Shown piece by piece: positions 5,559 through 61,068 of a DNA stretch of 64,000 bases. The DNA is taken from NCBI GenBank assembly GCA_049840735.1, contig JASGJN010000026.1, forward strand, positions 96,001 to 160,000. Reading direction: 5' to 3'. Source of the stretch: Anaeromyxobacter sp. GTDB taxonomy: Bacteria > Myxococcota > Myxococcia > Myxococcales > Anaeromyxobacteraceae. A program made the translations under genes and the position numbers. The first letter of the stretch is position 1, and every line of letters begins with the position of its first letter. Under the pieces are notes generated by a model that made no database searches, was not told the DNA's origin, and saw only the letters and a program-made list of their open reading frames with translations.

Positions 5559-6019
5559 GCGCGCCACGGTCCGGCGGCGCCCTTCGACTCCGCCGCGGCT
5601 TCGCGGCGGCTACGCTCAGGGCGAACGGTGGTCCACTCCGTTCGGGCTGAGGGTGGCGTGCCCGGGCGACCGTAGGCGCGCACAGTCCGGCGGCGGCCCT
5701 TCGACTCCGCCGCGGCTTCGCCGCGGCTACGCTCAGGGCGAACGGTGCTCCTCCGTTCGGGCTGAGGGTGGCGAGCCCGAGAGGCCTTAGGCGCGGGCGG
5801 TCCAGCGGCGCCCTTCGACTCCGCCGCGGCTTCGCCGCGGCTACGCTCAGGGCGAACGGTGGTCCTCCGTTCGGGCTGAGAGTGGCGAGCCCGGGCGACC
5901 GTAGGCGCGCACAGTCCGGCGGCGGCCCTTCGACTCCGCCGCGGCTACGCTCAGGGCGAACGTGTTCCTCCGTTCGGGCTGAGCGTAGCGAGCCCGCAGG
6001 GCTCGCGGAGTCGAAGCCC
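5552..6019. repeat. Tandem (BIME-like) array of REP-like elements: 4 direct units of ~115 bp plus one inverted copy
   Basis: CCTTCGACTCC starts at 5581, 5698, 5812, 5927 (periods 117/114/115) with similar linkers; inverted copy about 5970-6017. Confidence 0.9.
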
Positions 6020-6039
6020 AGGTCCCGAGCGAGCGCCGC

Positions 6040-14617: not shown

Positions 14618-17600
14618 ATGGCCTCCTTTCACGCTAGGAACGGGGCGGGCGAGCTGCTCGCCCGCTACTCCTTCGTCGAGCCGCTCCTCGAGGGCAAGCG
14701 CGTCCTCGAGGTCGGCGCCGCTGCAGCGACCGAGGGCGCGACGGCGCTCTTCCTCGCTGATCGCGGCGCCGCCGCGGTCCTCTCGATCGACGCCGACGAG
14801 GGCGGGCTGGAGGCCGCGCGCGCGGCCGGCCATCACCCGTTCGTCCAGTTCCTGGCGACCCAGCCGTCCGAGCTCCGGCCGGGCACCTTCGACCTGGTGC
14901 TGGTCGCCGACGGCGCGCCGCTGGCGGCCGATCCGGAGCAGGTGGCGGCGCTGCGGCGGCTGCTCTCGCCGGGCGGGCGGCTGGTGACGGCGCTGCCGGC
15001 GGAGGGCGGCGGGCTGGGCGACCTGGCCGGTGAGCCGCCGGGCGGCGAGGCGCCGGCGTACGAGACCTTCGTGAACGCGCTGGCGGATCACTTCCCGCTG
15101 GTGGAGGTGGCGGCGCAGTCGATGACGGTGGGCTGGGTCTTCGGCCTGCCGTCGGAGGACGAGCCGGAGATCGCCATGGACGGCCAGCTGGCCGGGACGC
15201 CGGAGACGGCGGCCTACGTGGCCATCTGCGGCGAGGAGCCGAGCGGGCTGTCCGGCTTCTCGGTGGTGGCGCTGCCGTCGGGGCCGCTGGTCCAGGCGGC
15301 GCGCGCGCGGGCCGGGCTGCCCGGCGAGGTGGACGTGCTGCGGGCGCAGCTGCGCGAGGCGGAGGCCGCCCGCGCGGTGCAGGAGGAGGCGCTGGCGGAG
15401 CTGCGCGCCCGGGCCGAGGCGGCCGAGGCGGCGCGGGCCGAGGCGCTGGCGGCGGCGGAGCTGGCGACGCGCGATCGCGACGAGGCGCAGGCGGCGCGGG
15501 CGCTGGCGGAGGTGGCGCAGGCCGAGGCGCAGGCGCAGGCGCGCGCCGCCGAGGAGGCCCGCGACCAGGCGGTCGCGGCGCGGGACGAGGCGGGCGCGGA
15601 GCGCGACGACGCCGTCGGCGCGCGCGTGCAGGCGTTCGCGCTGCGCGACCAGGCCGAGGTGGTCCGGCAGGCGGCGGACGAGGCGCGGCTGGAGGCCGAG
15701 GGGCAGCGCGATCGCGCCCAGCAGGCCGCGGCGCTGGAGCGCGAGGAGCGGGACCGGGTCCGCGAGGCGCTGGAGGCGGCCCAGGCCGAGCTGGCCGGGC
15801 TGCGCAACGAGCGCGACACCGCGCTGGCCGAGGTGGCGGCCCGGCGCGGGCAGCTGGAGGCGGCCACGGCCGAGCTGGCGGCGCTGCAGGAGGCGCGGGA
15901 CGAGGTGGCGCGCGAACGCGACCAGGTCCGCGGCGAGCGCGACCAGGCGCAGGCGCGCGAGACCGACGCGCAGCGGTCGCGCGAGGTGGCGCTGGCCGAG
16001 ACGGTGGCGCTGGGCGAGGCGGTCTCCCGGGCCGACGCGGCCGCGGCCGACGCGGCCCGCGAGCGCGACCAGGCCATCGCCGCGCGCGAGGCGGTGTCGG
16101 CCGACCTGGCCGACCTGCACCTGGCGCTGGACGAGGCCCGGCTGGCGCGGTCGGCGCTGGAGTCGCAGCTGGAGCGGATCAGCGCCGACGCCATCGCGCG
16201 GACCGAGCAGCTGCGCACGCTGGAGGTGGCGGCGGCGCGGGTGCCCGAGCTGGAGTCGCAGGCCGGGCGGCTGTCCGAGCTGGAGGGCGCGCTGGCGGCC
16301 ATGACCGGCGAGCGCGACGAGGCGCGCGACTCGCTGGCCCGGGCCGAGGCGGCGCTGCACGAGCGGCGCGCGGACGAGGACGAGGCGGCGGCGGCGCTGC
16401 AGGCGGCCCGCTCCGAGCTGCAGGCGGCGCGCACCGGGCTGGACGCGGCGCTGGACCGGGCCGGCGTGGCCGAGCAGCGCGTGACCGAGCTGGAGGAGGC
16501 GGTGGACGCCGGCGCGGCCGAGGTGAAGCTGCTGCGCGAAGAGCTGGAGCCGGCGCGGGCGCGGCTGGCCGAGCTGGACGCGTCGCTGGCCGCGGCGCGG
16601 GGCAACGCGGCCGAGCTGGAGGCGGCGCTGGCGCGGGCCGGCGAGCGCGAGTCCACGGCCTCGCTGCGGCTGATCGAGCTGGAGGGCACGGCCGGGCGCG
16701 CGGCGGAGCTGGAGGCCGCGGCGTCGCGGGTGGCGGAGCTGGAGGCGGCGGCGTCGATGCGCGCGGCGGAGCTGGAGGCGGCCAACGGGCGCGCGGCCGG
16801 GCTGGAGCAGGCGGCGGCGGCGCGGTCGGCCGAGCTGGAGGCCGCGGCCGGGCGGGCCGCCGAGCTGGAGACGGCGCTGGCGCGCGAGCGCGAGGCGCTG
16901 GCCGGCGCGCAGGCGGCGCTGGAGGCGGCGCGCCGCGAGCTGGACGAGGCGCGCGCGCGGGCCGGGCAGCTGGACGGGCTGCACGCCGAGCTGCAGGACC
17001 ACCGGGCCCGCGCGGTGGAGGGCGAGGGGCTGGCGGCCGAGCTGGAGATCCTGCGGGCGCGGGCCGGCGTGGCCGACGCGCTGGCGGCGGAGCTGGAGGA
17101 GCTGCGCGGCCGCGCGGCCGGGCTGGAGCAGCGCGCCGAGCAGGCCGAGCAGGTGGCGTCCCGCAGCGCCGACCGCGACGCGCTCCGCGACGAGCTGGAG
17201 CGGCTGCGGGCGGCGGTGGCCGAGGAGGACGCGACCCGCTCGGTGGAGCAGGAGACGCTGCGCGCCAAGGCCGACGCGGCCGAGGCGCTGGCGGCGGAGC
17301 TGGAGGCGCTGCGCGGGCGGGTGGCCGACTCGGCCGGCCTGTCCGGCGAGGTGGAGGCGCTCCGGGCCGAGGCGGCCGCGGCGGCGCAGCTGCGGGCCGA
17401 GGTGGCCGCGCTCAGGGCGCGCGGCCCGGTCCCGGTGAACAACGACGAGCTGGCCGCCGAGCTGGAGCTGCTGCGGGCCAAGTCCGAGCTGGCCGAGCAG
17501 CTCTCGGCCGACCTGGCCGCCTCCGAGGGGGCGCGGCGCGCCGCCGAGGAGAAGCTGGGCGAGCTGAAGGACGCGGCGGACAAGAAGGTGTCCGAGGCGC

Positions 17601-18502
17601 GGCGCGCGGCCTACGACGCGGCCGGCGCCGCGGCGTCGGCGCGCAAGGACCAGGAGGCGCTGCGGACCGAGCTGGCCGAGGTGAGCCTGGCCCGCGAGAC
17701 GCTGGAGGCGCAGGTGGCCGAGGCGGGCGCGCGGCTGGAGGCGGAGGGCGAGCGGCTGCGGGCCGCGGAGGCGGAGCTGGCGGCGCTCAAGGCGCAGGCG
17801 GCGGCCGCGCCGGTCGAGTCCGTCGAGCTGGTCGCGTCGGTGGCGGACGGCGAGGACCTGGAGCTGGCGCGCGCCGAGGCGGCGCGGCTGCGGGCCGAGG
17901 TGGAGCACTACGCCCGGGCCCGCGCGGCCCTGGAGACCGAGGTCTCGGCGGCGAAGAACGCGGCCGAGGCGGCCGAGGCGCAGGTGGCCGAGTTCGCCGC
18001 CGAGCTGCAGGCGGCGCGCTGGGAGCGCGAGGAGCTGGAGGGCCGGCTGCAGGGGCCGGCCGCGCCGGCGGGCGCGGCGGGCGAGCTGGCCCGGGCGCGC
18101 GACGAGCTGGCGGCCAAGGCCGCCGAGGTGGCGCTGCAGAAGCGCGAGCTGGCGCAGCTGCAGGCGGTGGTGGCGGAGCTGAACGCCCGCGGCCCGGCCG
18201 CCGACGCCGGCCCCGACCTGCGCACCGCCGAGCTGGAGGCGCAGCTCTCCGAGGCGCTGCGCCGGGCCGCCGACGCCGAGGCGGCCGCCGCGGCCCGGGT
18301 GGCCGCGCCGGGCGCCGACACCGCCGAGTCGCTGCACCGGGCCACCCAGGAGCGCGACAGCTACGCCGCGCAGGTGGCCGAGCGCGACGGGAAGATCGCC
18401 CGCCTGCAGCGCGAGGTGGCCGACAAGACCGAGCGCCTGGGGCGGCTGGCCAAGGAGATGGGCGAGCTGAAGGCCAAGGGGCTGGGGAAGATCTTCAGGT
18501 AG
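14618..18502 (+). CDS. Class I SAM-methyltransferase-like domain fused to a very long coiled coil
   Basis: RY.F...LLEGKRVLEVGAA, FDLV, LLSPGGRLV; then about 1050 aa of A/E/R/L heptads. Confidence 0.8.
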   Translation: MASFHARNGAGELLARYSFVEPLLEGKRVLEVGAAAATEGATALFLADRGAAAVLSIDADEGGLEAARAAGHHPFVQFLATQPSELRPGTFDLVLVADGAPLAADPEQVAALRRLLSPGGRLVTALPAEGGGLGDLAGEPPGGEAPAYETFVNALADHFPLVEVAAQSMTVGWVFGLPSEDEPEIAMDGQLAGTPETAAYVAICGEEPSGLSGFSVVALPSGPLVQAARARAGLPGEVDVLRAQLREAEAARAVQEEALAELRARAEAAEAARAEALAAAELATRDRDEAQAARALAEVAQAEAQAQARAAEEARDQAVAARDEAGAERDDAVGARVQAFALRDQAEVVRQAADEARLEAEGQRDRAQQAAALEREERDRVREALEAAQAELAGLRNERDTALAEVAARRGQLEAATAELAALQEARDEVARERDQVRGERDQAQARETDAQRSREVALAETVALGEAVSRADAAAADAARERDQAIAAREAVSADLADLHLALDEARLARSALESQLERISADAIARTEQLRTLEVAAARVPELESQAGRLSELEGALAAMTGERDEARDSLARAEAALHERRADEDEAAAALQAARSELQAARTGLDAALDRAGVAEQRVTELEEAVDAGAAEVKLLREELEPARARLAELDASLAAARGNAAELEAALARAGERESTASLRLIELEGTAGRAAELEAAASRVAELEAAASMRAAELEAANGRAAGLEQAAAARSAELEAAAGRAAELETALAREREALAGAQAALEAARRELDEARARAGQLDGLHAELQDHRARAVEGEGLAAELEILRARAGVADALAAELEELRGRAAGLEQRAEQAEQVASRSADRDALRDELERLRAAVAEEDATRSVEQETLRAKADAAEALAAELEALRGRVADSAGLSGEVEALRAEAAAAAQLRAEVAALRARGPVPVNNDELAAELELLRAKSELAEQLSADLAASEGARRAAEEKLGELKDAADKKVSEARRAAYDAAGAAASARKDQEALRTELAEVSLARETLEAQVAEAGARLEAEGERLRAAEAELAALKAQAAAAPVESVELVASVADGEDLELARAEAARLRAEVEHYARARAALETEVSAAKNAAEAAEAQVAEFAAELQAARWEREELEGRLQGPAAPAGAAGELARARDELAAKAAEVALQKRELAQLQAVVAELNARGPAADAGPDLRTAELEAQLSEALRRAADAEAAAAARVAAPGADTAESLHRATQERDSYAAQVAERDGKIARLQREVADKTERLGRLAKEMGELKAKGLGKIFR

Positions 18503-18549: not shown

Positions 18550-18698
18550 CTTCGACTCCGCGAGCCCTGCGGGCTCGCTACGCTCAGCCCGAACGGTGGC
18601 GGCCCCCGTTCGTGCTGATGGTCCTGGACGCACCGGCACGGACACGGGATCAGTTCGGCCTGAGCGTAGCGCCCGCGCAGCTGGCGCGGAGTCGAAGG
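18550..18698. repeat. Inverted pair of REP-like elements
   Basis: Forward 18550-18596, reverse 18653-18698. Confidence 0.88.
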
Positions 18699-22135: not shown

Positions 22136-22190
22136 CGGCGTTCTCCCGCTGAGCCGTGCTCCGGATCCGTTCGGCCTTCTATGAAGCGGC

Positions 22191-22485
22191 GTCCCCGGTC
22201 AAGGGCCGGTGATGTCGTTTGTCCTGAAGCCTGGGCGGCGCTGGTTGGCCATCGGTCAGGGAGTCAGGCGAACGCGAGTTCCATCAGCCTTCTATTCGCG
22301 CTCAACAGGGGCGGCAGTGCCGCCGGCGCAGTGGGGGATTCGAGCAGGGGGCGCCATCTGAGCGACGGCCGTTCCTGGTGACCGGCCAAGGCCGAACTCG
22401 CGCTCACCCTGTCTCGAAACCCGCTTTCGCCTCACTCCCGGATCTCCGGCCCGGCGTCCGCCCGACTGGGTCCGATTTCGGTCGT
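22191..22485 (-). ncRNA. Putative bridge/seek RNA of the IS1111 element (boundaries approximate)
   Basis: Non-coding region downstream of the transposase with target-matching segments at 22388-22397 and 22354-22364 and element-end-matching segments at 22279-22295, each framed by short stems. Confidence 0.75.
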
Positions 22486-23525
22486 CTAGGCCATCGCGTT
22501 TCCCCTGCAGGTGCGGCTGCCGTCGAAGTCCTTCCCGTCCCTCATCATCGCGAACAGGATTCCGGAGAGTTTGCGCGCCAGCGCCACGACGGCGACTGCG
22601 CGTCCCCTCCGCCGGTGGATCTTCCCCGCCCATTCGCGCAGCGGTAGCGACTCTGCGCTCTTGCTGCGCAAGACGCAGTGCGCGGCCTGGACGAGAAGCC
22701 AGCGCACCCTGGCGTTGCCGGTCTTGGTGATCCGCCCCTTGCGCTGTTTCTCGCCCGAGCTCAGCTCGCTAGGGACCAGGCCGCAGTAGGCGGACACCTG
22801 CTGGGCACTCTGGAAGCGCTTGGGATCATCGATGACGACGTCGTATGCGATGGCCGTCACGATGCCCACGCCTGGCGCCGTCGTGAGCCTCCGTACCACT
22901 GCGCTGTCGCGGGCGATGGCCTCGAGGTCAGCGTCGGCCTTGGCGATCCGGGCGTTCAGCGTGTCGAACATCAGCAGCAACGGCTCGATCTCGTCGCGGA
23001 CCTCGTCCGGCAGGGCCCATCTCATCTCCCAACACCACCCGCGCGAAGTGCTCGGCTTCGCAGCTCGGGGCCCGTAGCCCGTGGCTCCGCAAGGACGTCC
23101 GGGTCACCGTGATGAACCGCGACCTGGTGCGGACCAGCGTGTCTCTCACCGACAGGCGGACAGCGACCGTCCGCCGGGATTCCGACCTCCGGTGGGCCGC
23201 TCGGTAGGTCCCTGAACGGCAAGCCTCGGCCAGCGCTCGGGCATCTCGCCGATCTGGTCTTTACCCGCCTCGTCCGCGTCCCGTACATCGGCGCGTAGTT
23301 CGGGTCGGCCACGATCACTTCGTGCCCGAGCGATTCGATGTGCCGCGCCACCCATTCGCTTTCCGTGGAGGCCTCCAGCAGGAGCTTGGCCCGCGGCCTG
23401 TTCGCGAGCACCTCGGCGAACCGGTCGGCCCGGGTGGGGATCCGCACCTCCAGAACCCCGCCCTCCGCGTTCAGGATGCAAAGCTGGCTGTCCTTCTTGT
23501 GCAGGTCGATGCCAATATGGTCCAC
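22486..23525 (-). CDS. IS110-family DEDD recombinase/transposase (two apparent frameshifts, ~23255 and ~23020)
   Basis: GIDLHK, LEAS, KT[D]RRDA after correction, PGVG, GLVPSELSSG, GRITKTGN, VALARKL. Confidence 0.92.
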
Positions 23526-23612
23526 GGCTGGTCTCCACTCTCTGCGGCTCTGACCGCGTTGTGGGGCATTCGTGCCACCACCCCGAGGTGGAGGCCAGCC
23601 GCTTCATTCCAT

Positions 23613-23651
23613 CTGAGCGTAGCGAGCCCGCAGGGCTCGCGGAGTCGAAGG
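23613..23651 (-). repeat. Remainder of the REP interrupted by the IS (other part at 22167-22177)
   Basis: CTGAGCGTAGCGAGCCCGCAGGGCTCGCGGAGTCGAAGG, same hairpin as the copies at 5979 and 18550. Confidence 0.9.
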
Positions 23652-23763
23652 CCAGGGGTTCACTTCCAGGCACCTCCTCCCGATCTTGCTGGATCTGGCA
23701 AACCGGTTGGCTATACAAACTGAACCGAGGGTAGGGCCCGACTGGACCGGGCCGGGGGGACGC

Positions 23764-24999
23764 ATGACCGCGAACGAGGGCACGCCAACGCTCCAGGAGT
23801 GGACGGAGCGGTACGAGCAGTGGACGGGCAAGGACCTGGGGTTCAGCCGCGTGGCGGCGGGGCTGTTCCTGCTGGTCGGGGCGGGGTTGGTGCTCGCAGA
23901 GCACTGGCGCTGGGCGTACGTGGCCGTCGCGGCGGCGCCCGTGTTTATCTGTCTGGCCCGGCTGATCGAATCCAGCGTCCATCGCTGGACGGCGCTCAAG
24001 CGCGCAGACCTCGAACAGCCCATCCGACCGCGGCCTCGGGAGCTGGGGTGGGTCGCACTCGGGATCGGCGTGGCCGCCGGCATGGTCGTCCTGGGCTGGC
24101 CAGAGTTCTGGATCGGGTTCGATCCCTGGTTCTTCTTCGGGCTCGCGCTGCTGATCACCGCCGCGGCGTTCGCCGTGGGGCTTCCGATCGTGGGGGAGGA
24201 TACGTCCTGGGCCGCCGTGCTGCTGGCTGGTGCCGGAGGTGCATCGCTCCTCTCGGAGGCCGGGGTCCTGGGCGCGGCGGTCGTCTCCGGATCCGGCCTC
24301 CTGCTGCTCAGCACCGGCGCTCGCGTGGCGCGCGACTACCGGCGCACGCGAAAAGGCTTCGTCGCGGCCTGGAGCGAGGCGCTTCGCAGGTCGCCCCCGC
24401 AGCGCGACCTCGTCAGGGTCGCGTACGACACCCGCAGCCTGGCCACGCTCTCCGCCCACGCGCGCGGCGTCGGAGACGTGATCGTGGGTCTCTGGATGTT
24501 GGCGGCTGCCGGGTTCAACGAGCTGTTTGGAGCGTCAGTCGGTCTGCCCATGCTCCTTGGGACGCTGCTCGTGTACCTGGCGGTCCTGGCGCCGGCGCGC
24601 CGCTACTACCAGCGGACCGGGCTCGTAGCCGCCGATCCCGGAAAGCTGATCTCGAAGATGCGAAGGATCGGGCTGCCGCTAGCCATCGTGGTCCTGCTCT
24701 TCCAGGCGTCCTTCGCGGCGATGATGCTGCACGGGGCGACGCGCTGGATCTGCATGGGGCTCCTCATCACGCCGGCGGCCCTGCTCCCGTGGGTTGCCAA
24801 CGGGAACCTGGATGCATTCATGGTGATCCCGCTGTCGCAAATCCCGTTCACCGTGGTGCGGGATCCGGGCGTCAACACGATGACCTGGGTGGTCCTGGGC
24901 ATCTCGCTGGCGGCGTTCGGCCTCTTCGGCCACGTCAGGTTCCAGCAGCTCAGCGCGAAGCTCCGCGGACCGCCTCCTGGCGAAGCAGCCTCCACATGA
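23764..24999 (+). CDS. Multi-pass membrane hypothetical protein
   Basis: About 12 hydrophobic segments; GGGGGA SD; stop overlaps the next ATG (ATGA). Confidence 0.7.
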   Translation: MTANEGTPTLQEWTERYEQWTGKDLGFSRVAAGLFLLVGAGLVLAEHWRWAYVAVAAAPVFICLARLIESSVHRWTALKRADLEQPIRPRPRELGWVALGIGVAAGMVVLGWPEFWIGFDPWFFFGLALLITAAAFAVGLPIVGEDTSWAAVLLAGAGGASLLSEAGVLGAAVVSGSGLLLLSTGARVARDYRRTRKGFVAAWSEALRRSPPQRDLVRVAYDTRSLATLSAHARGVGDVIVGLWMLAAAGFNELFGASVGLPMLLGTLLVYLAVLAPARRYYQRTGLVAADPGKLISKMRRIGLPLAIVVLLFQASFAAMMLHGATRWICMGLLITPAALLPWVANGNLDAFMVIPLSQIPFTVVRDPGVNTMTWVVLGISLAAFGLFGHVRFQQLSAKLRGPPPGEAAST

Positions 25000-25298
25000 A
25001 GCCCCCCCACGAGCAGCTCCTCCAGCTCGACCGCGTCATCCACGAGCCGGCGCGGCTGGCCATCCTCACCATCCTGGCCGCGGCCCAGGAGGTGGGGTTC
25101 CGCTACCTGGAGTCGTCCACCCGGCTCACCAAGGGCAACCTCTCCTCGCACATGTCCAGGCTGGAGGCGGCCGGGTACGTGGAGATCCTGAAGGCGTTCC
25201 AGGGCAAGACGCCGGTGACGAGCTACCGGATGACGCCGGAGGGGCGGAAGGCGCTCAAGGCGTACCGGCTGCAGCTCTTGTCGGGGCTGGAGGGGTGA
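24996..25298 (+). CDS. Winged-helix (ArsR/MarR-like) transcriptional regulator
   Basis: LDRVIHEPARLAIL..L, LTKGNLSSH..RLE.AGYV, T.Y..T.EGR. Confidence 0.88.
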   Translation: MKPPHEQLLQLDRVIHEPARLAILTILAAAQEVGFRYLESSTRLTKGNLSSHMSRLEAAGYVEILKAFQGKTPVTSYRMTPEGRKALKAYRLQLLSGLEG

Positions 25299-25325
25299 GC
25301 CGTCGTCCGGCAGGGCACTCCCTGG

Positions 25326-25374
25326 CCTTCGACTCCGCCGCGCCCGGGGGCGCGGCTACGCTCAGGCCGAACGG
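25326..25374 (+). repeat. REP-like element (contains an empty IS target)
   Basis: CCTTCGACTCC-GCCGCGCCC-GG-GGGCGCGGC-TACGCTCAGGCCGAACGG. Confidence 0.88.
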
Positions 25375-25428
25375 GGGGTGAAACGCCCGAGCGCGCTCAG
25401 AAGGCTCCTCACGCACAGCTGCGCCCGC

Positions 25429-25804
25429 TCACGGCCACACGTTCACCCCCGCCTTCCCCTCCCACCCCTTCGAGCGGATCACGCAGAAGCGCTGGCCGGT
25501 GGGCGCCTCCATCACCCACCAGCGCTTCACCCAGCCGATGCGCTTCGCGCCCAGCTTCTCCAGGCGCGCGACCTCGGCCTCCTGGTCGTCGGTCTCCGAT
25601 GTCGAGGTGCACGCGGCTGGGGTGGTCCACCCGCTGGACCTCCACCGCCAGGTCGCGCGCGTCGGCGTGGAGCCCGACGTAGATGTCGTCCTCGCGCTCC
25701 TCGCGCGGCGCCATCCCCAGCGCGCCGCTCCAGAAGCGCGTCGAGGCCTCCAGCTCGTTCCCCTCGCAGTCGATGATGAACCCTGCCAGCCGGCTCCTGT
25801 GCAT
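25429..25804 (-). CDS. VOC/glyoxalase-like protein (+1 frameshift at ~25596)
   Basis: MHRSRLAGFIIDC...FWSGALG...PSRVHLDI[E]TDD.EAEVARLEKLGA...WWVMEAPTGQRFCV. Confidence 0.85.
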
Positions 25805-25940
25805 GCCCCCGTCTAGCGCGATCGCAGACTGCGCGAGCGTCAGCCGAGGGGGCGTCCCCGTCCAGGGCGCGTCGCAGGGATCGAAGCCGACGGCCGGCGC
25901 CGGGTGTATGAGGACGAGGTATCCAACCAAGGAGGACCCC

Positions 25941-26351
25941 ATGGGCCTGCTGGACGATCTGACCAAGAACCTGGGCGGCGCGGCGCTGGGCGGCGGGCAA
26001 GCGGGCGGGGGCGCGCAGGGCGGGCAGGGGGCGCTGATGCAGGCGGCCATTCACTGGCTGTCAAGCGGCGGGCTGCAGCAGGTGATGGGCGCGCTCCAGC
26101 AGCAGGGGCTGGGCCACCTGGTGGACTCCTGGGTCTCCACCGGCGCGAACAAGTCGATCTCCCCGGACCAGCTGGGCAAGGCCATCGGGCCGGATCAGCT
26201 CGGCAAGCTCGCGAAGGACTCCGGGCTCGACACCGGCGCCGTCACGCAGCAGCTCTCGACGCTGCTGCCTGGGCTGGTGGACAAGCTCTCACCGGGCGGA
26301 AAGCTGCCTGACCTCGGCGCCGTGGGCGGCCTGCTCAAGGGGCTCTTCTGA
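25941..26351 (+). CDS. YidB/DUF937 family protein
   Basis: AAGGAGG SD; MGLLD...GGL...GLG..V.SWVSTG.N..ISPDQL...LP.LVDKLSP.G. Confidence 0.88.
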   Translation: MGLLDDLTKNLGGAALGGGQAGGGAQGGQGALMQAAIHWLSSGGLQQVMGALQQQGLGHLVDSWVSTGANKSISPDQLGKAIGPDQLGKLAKDSGLDTGAVTQQLSTLLPGLVDKLSPGGKLPDLGAVGGLLKGLF

Positions 26352-26513
26352 TCGCACCCGTGGGCGGGGGCGACGCCGTAGGTTGATCTCCTACATGCGC
26401 TTTGTGGAGAGAAGCCCCGTTCCCACGGGAATTGCCCGTTGCGTCGGGTCATGCAAGGGTGCACGCGACCGGGCTCGGGGCGGGCTCGGATAGACCGGTC
26501 AGGAGTCAACGTC

Positions 26514-27443
26514 GTGCCCGGCGTGAAGCCGACCATCTTGCTGGCCGAGGACAGCCCGACCAACGCTGTCCTGCTGATGCTGTTGCTCGGCGACGACCAC
26601 GACGTGCTGCTGGCCCGCGACGGCCGGCGCGCGGTCGAGGTCGCCAAGACCGAGCAGCCCGACATCATCATCATGGACGGCATGATGCCGGTGCTGGACG
26701 GCTTCGAGGCCTGCGCGAAGCTGAAGGAGGATCCGGTCACCGCCGGCATCCCCATCATCTTCCTGACCGGCCTCGAGGACGAGGAGCGGGAGATCCGGGC
26801 GCTCGAGCTGGGCGCCTTCGACTTCATCTCCAAGCCCATCCGCCCGGCCCTGGTGCGCGCCCGCATCCGCAACTGCCTGGAGCTCAAGCGCCAGCGCGAT
26901 CTGCTGGCCCAGCTCTCCTTCACCGACGGCCTCACCGGCCTGGCGAACCGCCGCCGCTTCGACGAGGTGATGGAGCTGGAGTGGCGCCGCGCCGCCCGCG
27001 CCCGCCGGCAGCTCTCGGTGCTGCTGATGGACGTCGACTGCTTCAAGCTCTTCAACGACACGCGCGGCCACGTGGCCGGCGACGACTGCCTGCGCCGCGT
27101 GGCCATGGCCGCCGCCACCGCGATGCGCCGCCCCGGCGACCTGCTGGCCCGCTACGGCGGCGAGGAGTTCGCCTGCGTGCTGCCGGAGAGCGACCTCGAC
27201 GGCGCGCGCTTCCTGGCCGAGCGGATCCGCGAGCAGGTCGAGGCGCTGGGCCTGCCGCACCCGGCGTCCAAGTGCAAGCCGGTGGTGACGGTCTCGGTGG
27301 GCGTGGCCACCGTGGTCCCGGGCGACGACCGCGAGCCGGGCTGGCTGCTGGAGGCCGCCGACCGCGGGCTCTACCTGGCCAAGGAGCGCGGCCGGAACCA
27401 GGTCGGCGTGGCGCTGGCCGACTCCAGCATCGCCGCGGCCTGA
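26514..27443 (+). CDS. Response regulator diguanylate cyclase (REC-GGDEF)
   Basis: ILLAED, MDGMMP, DFISKP; DGLTGLANRR, RPGD I-site, RYGGEEF; AGGAG SD; GTG start assumed. Confidence 0.92.
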   Translation: MPGVKPTILLAEDSPTNAVLLMLLLGDDHDVLLARDGRRAVEVAKTEQPDIIIMDGMMPVLDGFEACAKLKEDPVTAGIPIIFLTGLEDEEREIRALELGAFDFISKPIRPALVRARIRNCLELKRQRDLLAQLSFTDGLTGLANRRRFDEVMELEWRRAARARRQLSVLLMDVDCFKLFNDTRGHVAGDDCLRRVAMAAATAMRRPGDLLARYGGEEFACVLPESDLDGARFLAERIREQVEALGLPHPASKCKPVVTVSVGVATVVPGDDREPGWLLEAADRGLYLAKERGRNQVGVALADSSIAAA

Positions 27444-27514
27444 TCCGCGCGTCGAGGCTCGAGCCGCGTCCCGCGCCTGGAGCGCCGCCGCCGCGCTCGT
27501 GTATCCTCGCGCCC

Positions 27515-27982
27515 ATGAGAAGCCCGCTCCGCGCCCTGCTCCTGGCCGCGCTCGCCCTCCCCGCCGCGGCCGCCGCCGCCCCGTGGACCGGGGCGCAGCA
27601 GAAGGCCTTCCTCGAGCAGTGCCGGCAGCCCGGCACGCCCGGCGCGGACGTGAAGGGTTACTGTGAGTGCATGATGGACCGGGCGCAGGGCATCGCGTCC
27701 TACGAGCAGCTCACCACCCCCGGCGCGCCCGGCGAGGTGGAGAGGAAGCTGGACGCGGCCATGGCCACCTGCCTCGACGCCGACCCGGCGCAGTACCAGG
27801 CGCTGCTGGTCCAGCGCGAGAAGGCCTGCACCGCCGCGGGTGAGTCCGCCGCCTGGTGCGCCTGCGCGCGCAAGTGGACGGCCGGCCGCTGGGCCAGGCT
27901 CTCGGCCCTGGTGACCTCGCTGATGGACGACGAGGCCCGCAAGGCCGAGCGGGCCAAGCTGCTCAAGGCCTGCCCCAAGTAG
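27515..27982 (+). CDS. Secreted Cys-rich hypothetical protein with two similar halves
   Basis: Signal peptide; repeated C...(Y/W)CxC...C pattern. Confidence 0.7.
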   Translation: MRSPLRALLLAALALPAAAAAAPWTGAQQKAFLEQCRQPGTPGADVKGYCECMMDRAQGIASYEQLTTPGAPGEVERKLDAAMATCLDADPAQYQALLVQREKACTAAGESAAWCACARKWTAGRWARLSALVTSLMDDEARKAERAKLLKACPK

Positions 27983-28080
27983 CCGCAGTCCCTGGGCGCG
28001 TCCCGTGTCCCTGGGAGCCCCGCTTGCCGCAGCAAGGCGTGGAGCGGCGGCAGGGCCCTCGTGTATCCTGCCCCCCTCTC

Positions 28081-28977
28081 ATGGCCGAGACCGATCCGCC
28101 GACCCGCAGCCGCCAGACCGGGGAAGCCCCGGCTGTCGGCAGCCCGTTCTCGGTCGTGATGGTGCGCGGCCCGGCGGCCGGCGTGCGCGTGCCGCTCGAG
28201 GGGGAGGTGGTGGTCGGGCGCGACCCGCGCTGCGAGCTGCCGGTCCCCTCCGGCGACGTCTCGCGCCGCCATGCCCGCATCGTCCCCGAGGGCGACGGGC
28301 ACCGGATCATCGACCTCGAGTCCACCAACGGCACCTTCGTCAACGGCCGCTCCGTGCGCGACCACCGCCTGGCGGCCGGCGACCGGATCGAGCTGGGCTC
28401 CTGCGTGCTCCGCTACCTGCGCCAGGGCGAGGCCGACGCCGAGGACATCGCCGCGCTGGCCGAGCTGGTCCGGCGCGACGCGCTGACCGGACTCGCGAAC
28501 CGCCGCGCCTTCGAGGAGGCGCTGCGCCGCGAGGTGGCCCGCGCCCGCCGCGCCGGCGACCTGCTCTCGGTGGTGGCCATCGACGTGGACCACTTCAAGA
28601 ACGTGAACGACGAGCACGGCCACGCCGCCGGCGACCAGGTGCTGGTGGAGGTGGCCTTTCGCGCCGCCAGCGCGCTGCGCACCGAGGACCTGCTGGCCCG
28701 CATCGGCGGCGAGGAGCTGGCGGTGCTGCTGCCCGGGGCCACGCTGCCCGCGGCGGCGGAGGTGGCGGAGCGGATCCGGCGCGCGGTGGCGGATCGCACC
28801 GTGAGCGTGCCGGACGGCGAGGTGGCGGTGACGGTCTCGCTGGGCTGCGCCACGCTCGCGCCCGGCGAGTCGGATCCCAGCAGCCTGGTGGCCCGCGCCG
28901 ACGCGCGGCTCTACGACGCCAAGCGCGCCGGCCGCAACCGCGTGGTCTTCGCGACCGTGCCGGCCGCGGCCCAGTAG
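28081..28977 (+). CDS. FHA-GGDEF diguanylate cyclase
   Basis: FHA: VGR, VSRRHA, DLESTNGTFVNG; GGDEF: DALTGLANRR, DHFK.VND..GH, RTED I-site, RIGGEEL. Confidence 0.9.
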   Translation: MAETDPPTRSRQTGEAPAVGSPFSVVMVRGPAAGVRVPLEGEVVVGRDPRCELPVPSGDVSRRHARIVPEGDGHRIIDLESTNGTFVNGRSVRDHRLAAGDRIELGSCVLRYLRQGEADAEDIAALAELVRRDALTGLANRRAFEEALRREVARARRAGDLLSVVAIDVDHFKNVNDEHGHAAGDQVLVEVAFRAASALRTEDLLARIGGEELAVLLPGATLPAAAEVAERIRRAVADRTVSVPDGEVAVTVSLGCATLAPGESDPSSLVARADARLYDAKRAGRNRVVFATVPAAAQ

Positions 28978-36226: not shown

Positions 36227-36329
36227 CCTTCGACTCCGGGCCCGCCTCGGGCGGGCCCTACGCTCAGGCTGACCGGATCCAGGCTCCGTTCGGCCTGAGC
36301 GTAGCCGCCGAAGGCGGCGGAGTCGAAGG
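36227..36329. repeat. Inverted pair of REP-like elements
   Basis: Forward 36227-36276, reverse 36286-36329. Confidence 0.88.
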
Positions 36330-39467: not shown

Positions 39468-47675
<8,208 letters not shown>

Positions 47676-61020: not shown

Positions 61021-61068
61021 CCTTCGACTCCGCGCCCGCTGCGCGGGCGCTACGCTCAGGCCGAACGG
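61021..61068 (+). repeat. REP-like element (contains an empty IS target)
   Basis: CCTTCGACTCC-GCGCCCGC-TGC-GCGGGCGC-TACGCTCAGGCCGAACGG. Confidence 0.88.

Follow-up and report, generated by a model that had tools for sequence, protein, structure and literature searches.

An IS1111-group element inside a REP

The window, i.e. the whole stretch of 64,000 nt analysed here, harbors an IS1111-group insertion sequence of 1437 nt (22178 to 23614, minus strand, one CT core included). It is located between the stop codon of a GH57 gene (22135; Pfam match) and an unannotated open reading frame (ORF) starting near 23686, with its transposase gene on the opposite strand. The limits of the element were assigned from the excision join and from ends that are kept in relatives. 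Excision of 22178 to 23614 restores CCGTTCGGC-CT-GAGCGTAG, followed by a hairpin and GTCGAAGGCC, and thereby, base for base, the intact REP described in the first-pass annotation. The three neighbouring excisions tried gave either the identical join (22177 to 23613, with the CT core assigned otherwise) or a broken REP. The interrupted 5' part of the REP (22167 to 22177, plus strand), recognised from the excision join and the genome copies, ends in the CT core (22176 to 22177), and the 3' part (23615 to 23653, plus strand; excision join and REP census) comprises GAGCGTAG, the inner hairpin and GTCGAAGGCC.

CT is found at both junctions (22176 to 22177 and 23613 to 23614) and a longer duplication is absent, in line with the earlier claim that there is no target site duplication beyond the core. 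The same core-only insertion, with CT and nothing beyond, was found in 5/5 copies of the element, as is typical of the IS110 family. Two perfect 10-bp sub-terminal inverted repeats are present on the minus strand, the left one (23598 to 23607) 7 nt from the end including the core and the right one (22181 to 22190) 3 nt from the end. The 7/3 offset, a hallmark of the IS1111 family, had been noted before and is shared by the relatives. About 310 nt of non-coding DNA lie downstream of the transposase gene vs. 89 nt upstream, another trait of the IS1111 group, and the IS1111 anatomy initially proposed is supported. IS1111 elements are described as having sub-terminal repeats of 7 to 17 bp and as encoding a bridge RNA in their long right end (PMC11208160).

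The transposase gene (22486 to 23525, minus strand) encodes an IS110-family DEDD/serine recombinase according to copy comparison and profile matches. Compared to the intact copies, which are 1429 to 1431 nt in length, the gene of the window copy is broken by insertions of 1 nt (near 23255) and 7 nt (near 23019 to 23025); these frameshifts were absent from the first-pass annotation. Five copies of the element, 98.6 to 100% identical (BLAST) and differing by 4 to 20 substitutions, were found on four contigs of the genome, and a protein search of the assembly revealed no other IS110 element besides them. All five share the same 10 left bases and GAGCGTAG on the right, while the hairpins and flanks beyond differ. 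An intact protein of 343 amino acids is encoded by three of the five copies; the window copy and the copy on contig C4 are frameshifted. The intact protein matches NF033542 (IS110 RNA-guided transposase) with 249.5 bits at a cut-off of 140 and contains D7, E51, D91, D94 and S254 in the DEDD/serine motifs expected of the IS110 family. The C-terminal piece of the window's transposase is matched by PF02371 (E 1e-24), and no Pfam family was matched by the N-terminal fragment alone. Because its ends and guides are intact despite the frameshifts, the window copy might still be mobilised in trans by the three intact copies, or serve as a source of RNA.

Several observations concern the surroundings of the element. 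In many other species the GH57 gene apparently adjoins, as judged by eye, an ORF resembling that near 27856 to 28977 of the window, for which reason the block from 22140 to 27850 looks lineage-specific. At 29 orthologous loci of other species, the region 3' of the GH57 gene contained neither the element nor the downstream gene, nor a canonical REP. At 14618 to 18502, a 1294-aa ORF gives the impression, from its translation, of a methyltransferase-like start followed by very long Ala/Glu/Arg heptad repeats. A 238-nt direct repeat is present in two copies with 89% identity (42071 to 42308 and 42464 to 42701).

The target repeat and its subtypes

In the REP-like repeat, which is approximately 55 nt long, a conserved 5' arm is followed by GAGCGTAG, an inner hairpin that varies between copies, and GTCGAAG. 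A pattern census yielded 443 copies in the genome, which is a lower bound (the pattern misses one of the five occupied REPs), and the core pattern occurred 393 times compared to 0 for a reversed control. The repeat is short, palindromic, multi-copy and mostly extragenic and has compensatory stems, as expected of a REP. Of 37 genomes of the genus, 25 contain it, the present one with the greatest expansion. A tandem array of paired REP copies with a period of approximately 115 nt is located at 5579 to 6022 of the window and contains two subtypes unoccupied by the element.

Positions 6 and 7 of the 14-mer target vary and covary with the 3' arm of the REP (CC/GG in 134 copies, GC/GC in 130, TC/GA in 78 and GG/CC in 74), and therefore belong to the outer stem, which is split by the insertion. 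These four complementary classes cover 416 of the 443 copies, and the four main 14-mers are found empty 118, 101, 80 and 69 times. The exact target of the element is empty at 101 places genome-wide. Four of these had been listed for the window and all are present as exact matches in REP copies, two on the plus strand (18653 to 18666 and 36288 to 36301) and two on the minus strand (25359 to 25372 and 61053 to 61066); the two REP variants named alongside them each differ from the guide by one base. All five occupied sites and 92 of the 101 empty exact targets are outside called genes, the genes having been called by a crude ORF caller that covers 75% of the genome. The term 'safe harbour' used in the first-pass annotation thus holds in the sense of an intergenic position only; harmlessness of the insertion would be a supposition beyond it.

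Mapping of all copies, proposed as a check in the first-pass annotation, placed 5/5 at the same CT of the guide-matched REP subtype and none elsewhere. This subtype accounts for 106 of 373 copies (approximately 28%) of the four main subtypes when occupied sites are counted, and the probability of finding 5/5 in one subtype is approximately 0.002 if the four main subtypes are equally usable. The element hence prefers one REP subtype (n = 5). The proposal that REP variation sets the usable sites is borne out as a bias based on five copies, but not as an absolute gate, because an unrelated IS110 element of the genus (genome G020, see below) tolerates a subtype mismatch in one of its four copies.

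A 93-aa GIY-YIG gene (G000:C21:263786-264064; L219 1492-1770) is located among 11 copies of the target repeat. It is the only one of three GIY-YIG matches with the repeat within 1 kb; the other two have none. Of 14 loci retrieved for close homologues of this gene in the genus, 10 carry the repeat at a distance of up to 500 nt and four a shorter form of it (by eye); 0 of 16 loci of GIY-YIG paralogues matched the repeat pattern. Ssn GIY-YIG nucleases flanked by hairpins (SRM) are described (PMC11893778), and the arrangement found here is alike in that an oriented intergenic hairpin is clustered around a small single-domain GIY-YIG gene. This likeness concerns the layout, one trait of an Ssn/SRM system beside a nuclease of the cd10448 clade, the SRM consensus and cleavage of ssDNA. 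The repeat also resembles the GTAG REPs associated with RAYT in carrying a GTAG tag on an oriented intergenic hairpin; the available part of the report on the GTAG and CGTC REP families mentions neither this genus nor GIY-YIG (PMC3733652). Unlike in those REPs, no repeat was found within 1 kb of a Y1 transposase at any of the six PF01797 matches in this genome, which is 94% complete, and a RAYT link (GTAG REP/REPtron) was rejected on these grounds.

The predicted guide RNA and the proposed mechanism

The long non-coding region 3' of the transposase gene (22178 to 22485, minus strand) is predicted from its sequence and from the relatives to encode a bridge RNA or seekRNA with a scaffold at about 22260 to 22415. 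The left target guide GTTCGGCCT (22389 to 22397, minus strand) matches target positions 1 to 7 plus the core at 9/9 positions and covers the two REP bases that define the subtype. The right target guide CGCTCAG (22364 to 22358, 7/7) is followed by a handshake AT matching the left end of the element (22356 to 22364 with the guide, minus strand), and a hairpin is located between both target guides, which are directed at opposite strands and overlap at the core. On the donor side, the right guide ATAGAAG (22295 to 22289, 7/7) is followed by a handshake GC complementary to target positions 6 and 7 (22287 to 22295 with the guide, minus strand). The position of the left donor guide (22330 to 22338, minus strand), assigned by column analysis, shows a contiguous donor match of 3 nt only; the family mean is 3.74 compared to 3.16 for shuffled sequences. 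A near-contiguous donor guide (ATAGAAG, then GATGGAA) was rejected, since its second part is unconserved in relatives.

The guides were assessed with 165 loci, namely the element, four loci of the genus and 160 others (the best 80 of 518 and the best 80 of 138). Both ends were called in 126 of the 165, eight loci were removed by eye as miscalled and further ones because their flanks were short or their core began with a base other than A, which left 112 loci and, after dereplication, 47. The guide alluded to in the first-pass annotation is present and covaries with the targets across these relatives. A left guide of at least 8 nt was found between a non-coding region and its own target in 47% of cases vs. 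1.7% of cross pairs, and a right guide of at least 6 nt in 72% vs. 8.6%, with the cross controls overstating the significance because the relatives are phylogenetically linked.

In a column-wise analysis of 43 aligned regions shorter than 450 nt, the guide matches occupied fixed columns of a conserved scaffold. The columns of the right target guide matched the own target at 0.60 to 0.93 (cross pairs 0.25 to 0.32), and in the right donor guide the one base that varies tracked the element end (0.98 vs. 0.41). The first handshake base after the right target guide follows the donor (0.91 vs. 0.49) and the target only at 0.12, which corresponds to the post-exchange handshake of IS621; the donor-loop handshake gave a weaker signal (0.70/0.62 and 0.49/0.31). 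Matches in the left-guide columns average approximately 0.5 in the relatives, hence mismatched insertions are common in the family. In the consensus fold of 42 relatives both target guides are unpaired in an internal loop, and two-sided changes were found in 11 of 17 pairs. The single-sequence fold was no better than shuffles (z -1.67, and 0.42 and -0.41 for the two loops), and a search of Rfam gave 0 matches down to E 1.

The outward-facing TTGACC reported previously is present on the minus strand (22202 to 22197). This -35 hexamer faces the right end and is a candidate half of a circle-junction promoter, as judged from the sequence and the relatives. TTGAC or TTGCC is found in the last 35 nt, 20 to 26 nt from the end, in 42 of 47 relatives, and in elements with the -35 hexamer at a distance of 20 nt, TAGGAT or TAGTAT would be contributed by the left end at a spacing of 17 nt in the circle. 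For the present element, a -10 GAAGAT with the same 17-nt spacing would arise across the circle junction (GAAGGC in the integrated form). It is a weak match to the consensus, and a circle-junction promoter is plausible in view of the conservation in the relatives.

By analogy with IS621, ISEc11 and ISPa11, the element would excise as a circle in which its two ends are joined across the CT core, creating this promoter. The RNA of the downstream region would pair with both strands of the 14-bp target, through 9 nt on its left and 7 nt on its right side that overlap at the core, and would in addition pair with the donor junction on the right. The DEDD/serine recombinase would then exchange strands at the core and leave no duplication beyond it, the chemistry being taken from IS621. 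Positions 6 and 7 would be read both by the left guide and by the post-exchange donor-loop handshake, so that pairing at these positions may be the cause of the preference for one subtype. Ends, core, guides, fixed site, subtype bias and intergenic position can be read from the sequences themselves.

Relatives, alternative explanations and known systems

No close DNA relative of the element was found among 60 other genomes, in which only chance matches of 23 to 63 nt occurred, and no full-length protein match above 40% among 91 genomes of the family. The locus L338 contains a truncated remnant with 65% identity, which is without usable ends. In a sample of the phylum, relatives with 53 to 58% identity were found, whose flanks are, by eye, not this REP. 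The best match in plasmids was about 35%, and the junction pattern was found 0 times in viral contigs. Among the relatives found, L133 is nearest to the element (67%). Its left flank and right guide are those of the element, but its left guide reads GCTCATCCT and its handshake, in agreement with this, GA; the right flank lies beyond the contig, and the full target is thus a presumed one. This 1.4-kb contig (L133 1-1367) is labelled Brevundimonas, which may be a binning error. In a more distant relative (L203, 45%) the five-base flank is identical, whereas the left guide is altered, and the target agrees with it.

Other IS110 lineages of the genus are inserted into the same REP family. A single IS1111 element in genome G033 (L258, about 1385 to 2748; 32% identity) is located at AG of the GTAG tag in the opposite orientation. 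The IS110 element of genome G020 (L227 455-2012, L240, L249 and L256; 26% identical), in which the non-coding region and visible guides are upstream of the gene, is found at AG of GAGC in 4/4 copies, three of them in the guide-matched subtype and one in a one-mismatch subtype. Of 55 empty sites in G020, 14 belong to the matched subtype and 34 to the one-mismatch subtype. Altogether, the guides of at least three IS110 lineages are aimed at three separate dinucleotides, none of them further than 10 bases from the REP 5' arm. The IS110 loci of G025, of a second G020 family and of G021 are not in this REP; 21 further IS110 loci of the genus were scanned for pieces of the repeat alone.

Among these loci, nine IS110 copies of G025 (L035 and siblings) are located in a long repeated element, two of them with a duplicated right end, and two copies of G021 (L233 and L243) in a different, G-rich palindromic repeat. 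Eight relatives (L064, L065, L123, L136, L146, L158, L162 and L202) form a sub-lineage inserted after CTAAC-containing motifs that resemble integron attC ends; in several of them the right core reads AA and not AG. Genomes of Vicinamibacterales (L164-L185, L200 and L211) contain many copies of relatives whose target is conserved and coding-like and seems to belong to another multi-copy element.

The convergence of three IS110 lineages on one repeat, together with the many relatives that by eye adjoin other palindromic repeats or attC-like ends, would also fit a recruitment of the recombinase by the REP hairpin (as a cruciform, a single strand or via a bound protein) instead of by RNA pairing, the guide match being secondary to repeated use of the site. 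This is very unlikely, as the guides change together with the targets across the family and each of the three lineages is inserted at a dinucleotide of its own, in accordance with its RNA. Moreover, RNA was sufficient to redirect the elements in the reprogramming experiments with ISEc11 and IS621 (PMC11187229, PMC11208160). It is conceivable, but on balance unlikely, that the REP family is targeted as a whole with one mismatch tolerated, and that the 5/5 reflects a preference or a small-number effect and not gating. The G020 copy in the one-mismatch subtype, the natural mismatch that IS621 tolerates at target position 4 (PMC11208160) and the many relatives inserted in sites imperfectly matching their own guides are consistent with it. 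Against it stand the low chance of 5/5 under equal subtype use, the opposition of the three other subtypes to the guide as G:G, G:A or C:C beside the core, with no wobble, and the three of four G020 copies in the matched subtype, although this is the rarer one among the empty sites.

An origin of the five copies, or of the window frameshifts, as collapsed or mis-polished repeats of the assembly (94% complete, 26 contigs) would be suggested by indels within or next to short runs or tandem motifs in three of the five copies, and by variant patterns that are mosaic between copies. As all five copies differ in their flanks, are spread over four contigs, are bordered by a clean REP half at either end and are distinguished by substitutions, such an origin is very improbable. 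It would not account for the targeting but could for the frameshifts, which may reflect decay or an assembly error. The element is thus regarded with high confidence as an IS1111-group bridge recombinase that is RNA-guided to one REP position with one subtype preferred. If the insertion destroys a function of the repeat (e.g. a cut site of the GIY-YIG nuclease), the stem variants could be escape alleles. Co-evolution or an arms race of guide and repeat inside single genomes, with the REP 5' arm as contested landing pad and the stem variants at positions 6 and 7 as escape alleles, appears rather doubtful.

The knowledge of how such elements work is unchanged by these findings. They provide a well-resolved predicted bridge RNA of an IS1111 element, in which the right guide is naturally 7 nt long and which stems from a high-GC lineage, and dozens of naturally reprogrammed relatives in the family. 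The four REP subtypes with 69 to 118 empty copies each, one base apart beside the core, represent a built-in test of specificity, by which the single-mismatch tolerance of an IS1111 recombinase is measurable in its native genome. A description of this element or of the REP family was not found in the literature, where supplementary tables may list the element. REP-targeting IS1111 elements with guide RNAs have already been published (ISPa11, IS621 class), and the element adds a clear new example.

ISPa11 of Pseudomonas aeruginosa is an IS1111 element targeting REPs through a seekRNA (PMC11187229), and 6/6 copies of ISPa11 as well as 7/7 of ISPpu9 and ISPpu10 are reported in REPs (PMC1525189). 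The element described here resembles ISPa11 in its IS1111 type, downstream seekRNA region, sub-terminal repeats and location of all copies at one REP position, while host group, REP family and guide sequences are different; it is set beside ISPa11 by description, not by identity. Comparable to ISPpu9 and ISPpu10 of Pseudomonas putida, dissimilar IS110 elements with a 2-bp repeat share one REP family in one genus (PMC1525189). Those two share one REP position, whereas the three lineages considered here, found in different genomes of the genus, are each inserted at another dinucleotide.

For IS621, 144 of 173 genomic insertions are in REPs and the mismatch tolerance is low (PMC11208160); handshake guides are described for bridge recombinases, including a post-exchange handshake of IS621 (PMC13626964). 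The protein is distantly similar to IS621 and ISCro4 (PDB 8wt6 and 9t56; E 1e-12 and 1.5e-15). Features shared with these two systems (PMC11208160, PMC13626964) are the CT core, the 7+2+5 target, an internal loop that contains the left and right target guides, and handshake dinucleotides adapted to the product of the exchange, and IS621 is REP-targeted as well; a junction promoter, which they possess, is a candidate feature here. Unlike in IS621 and ISCro4, the RNA is encoded downstream of the gene instead of upstream, its sense being opposite to that of the CT strand, the sub-terminal repeats comprise 10 bp, the right guide is naturally 7 nt long and the left donor guide is weak. Natural reprogramming was demonstrated for ISEc11 and ISXne4 (PMC11187229), in which guides and targets changed together as in L133 and L203; in contrast to that pair, the change seen here shifts the element between variants of one repeat family.
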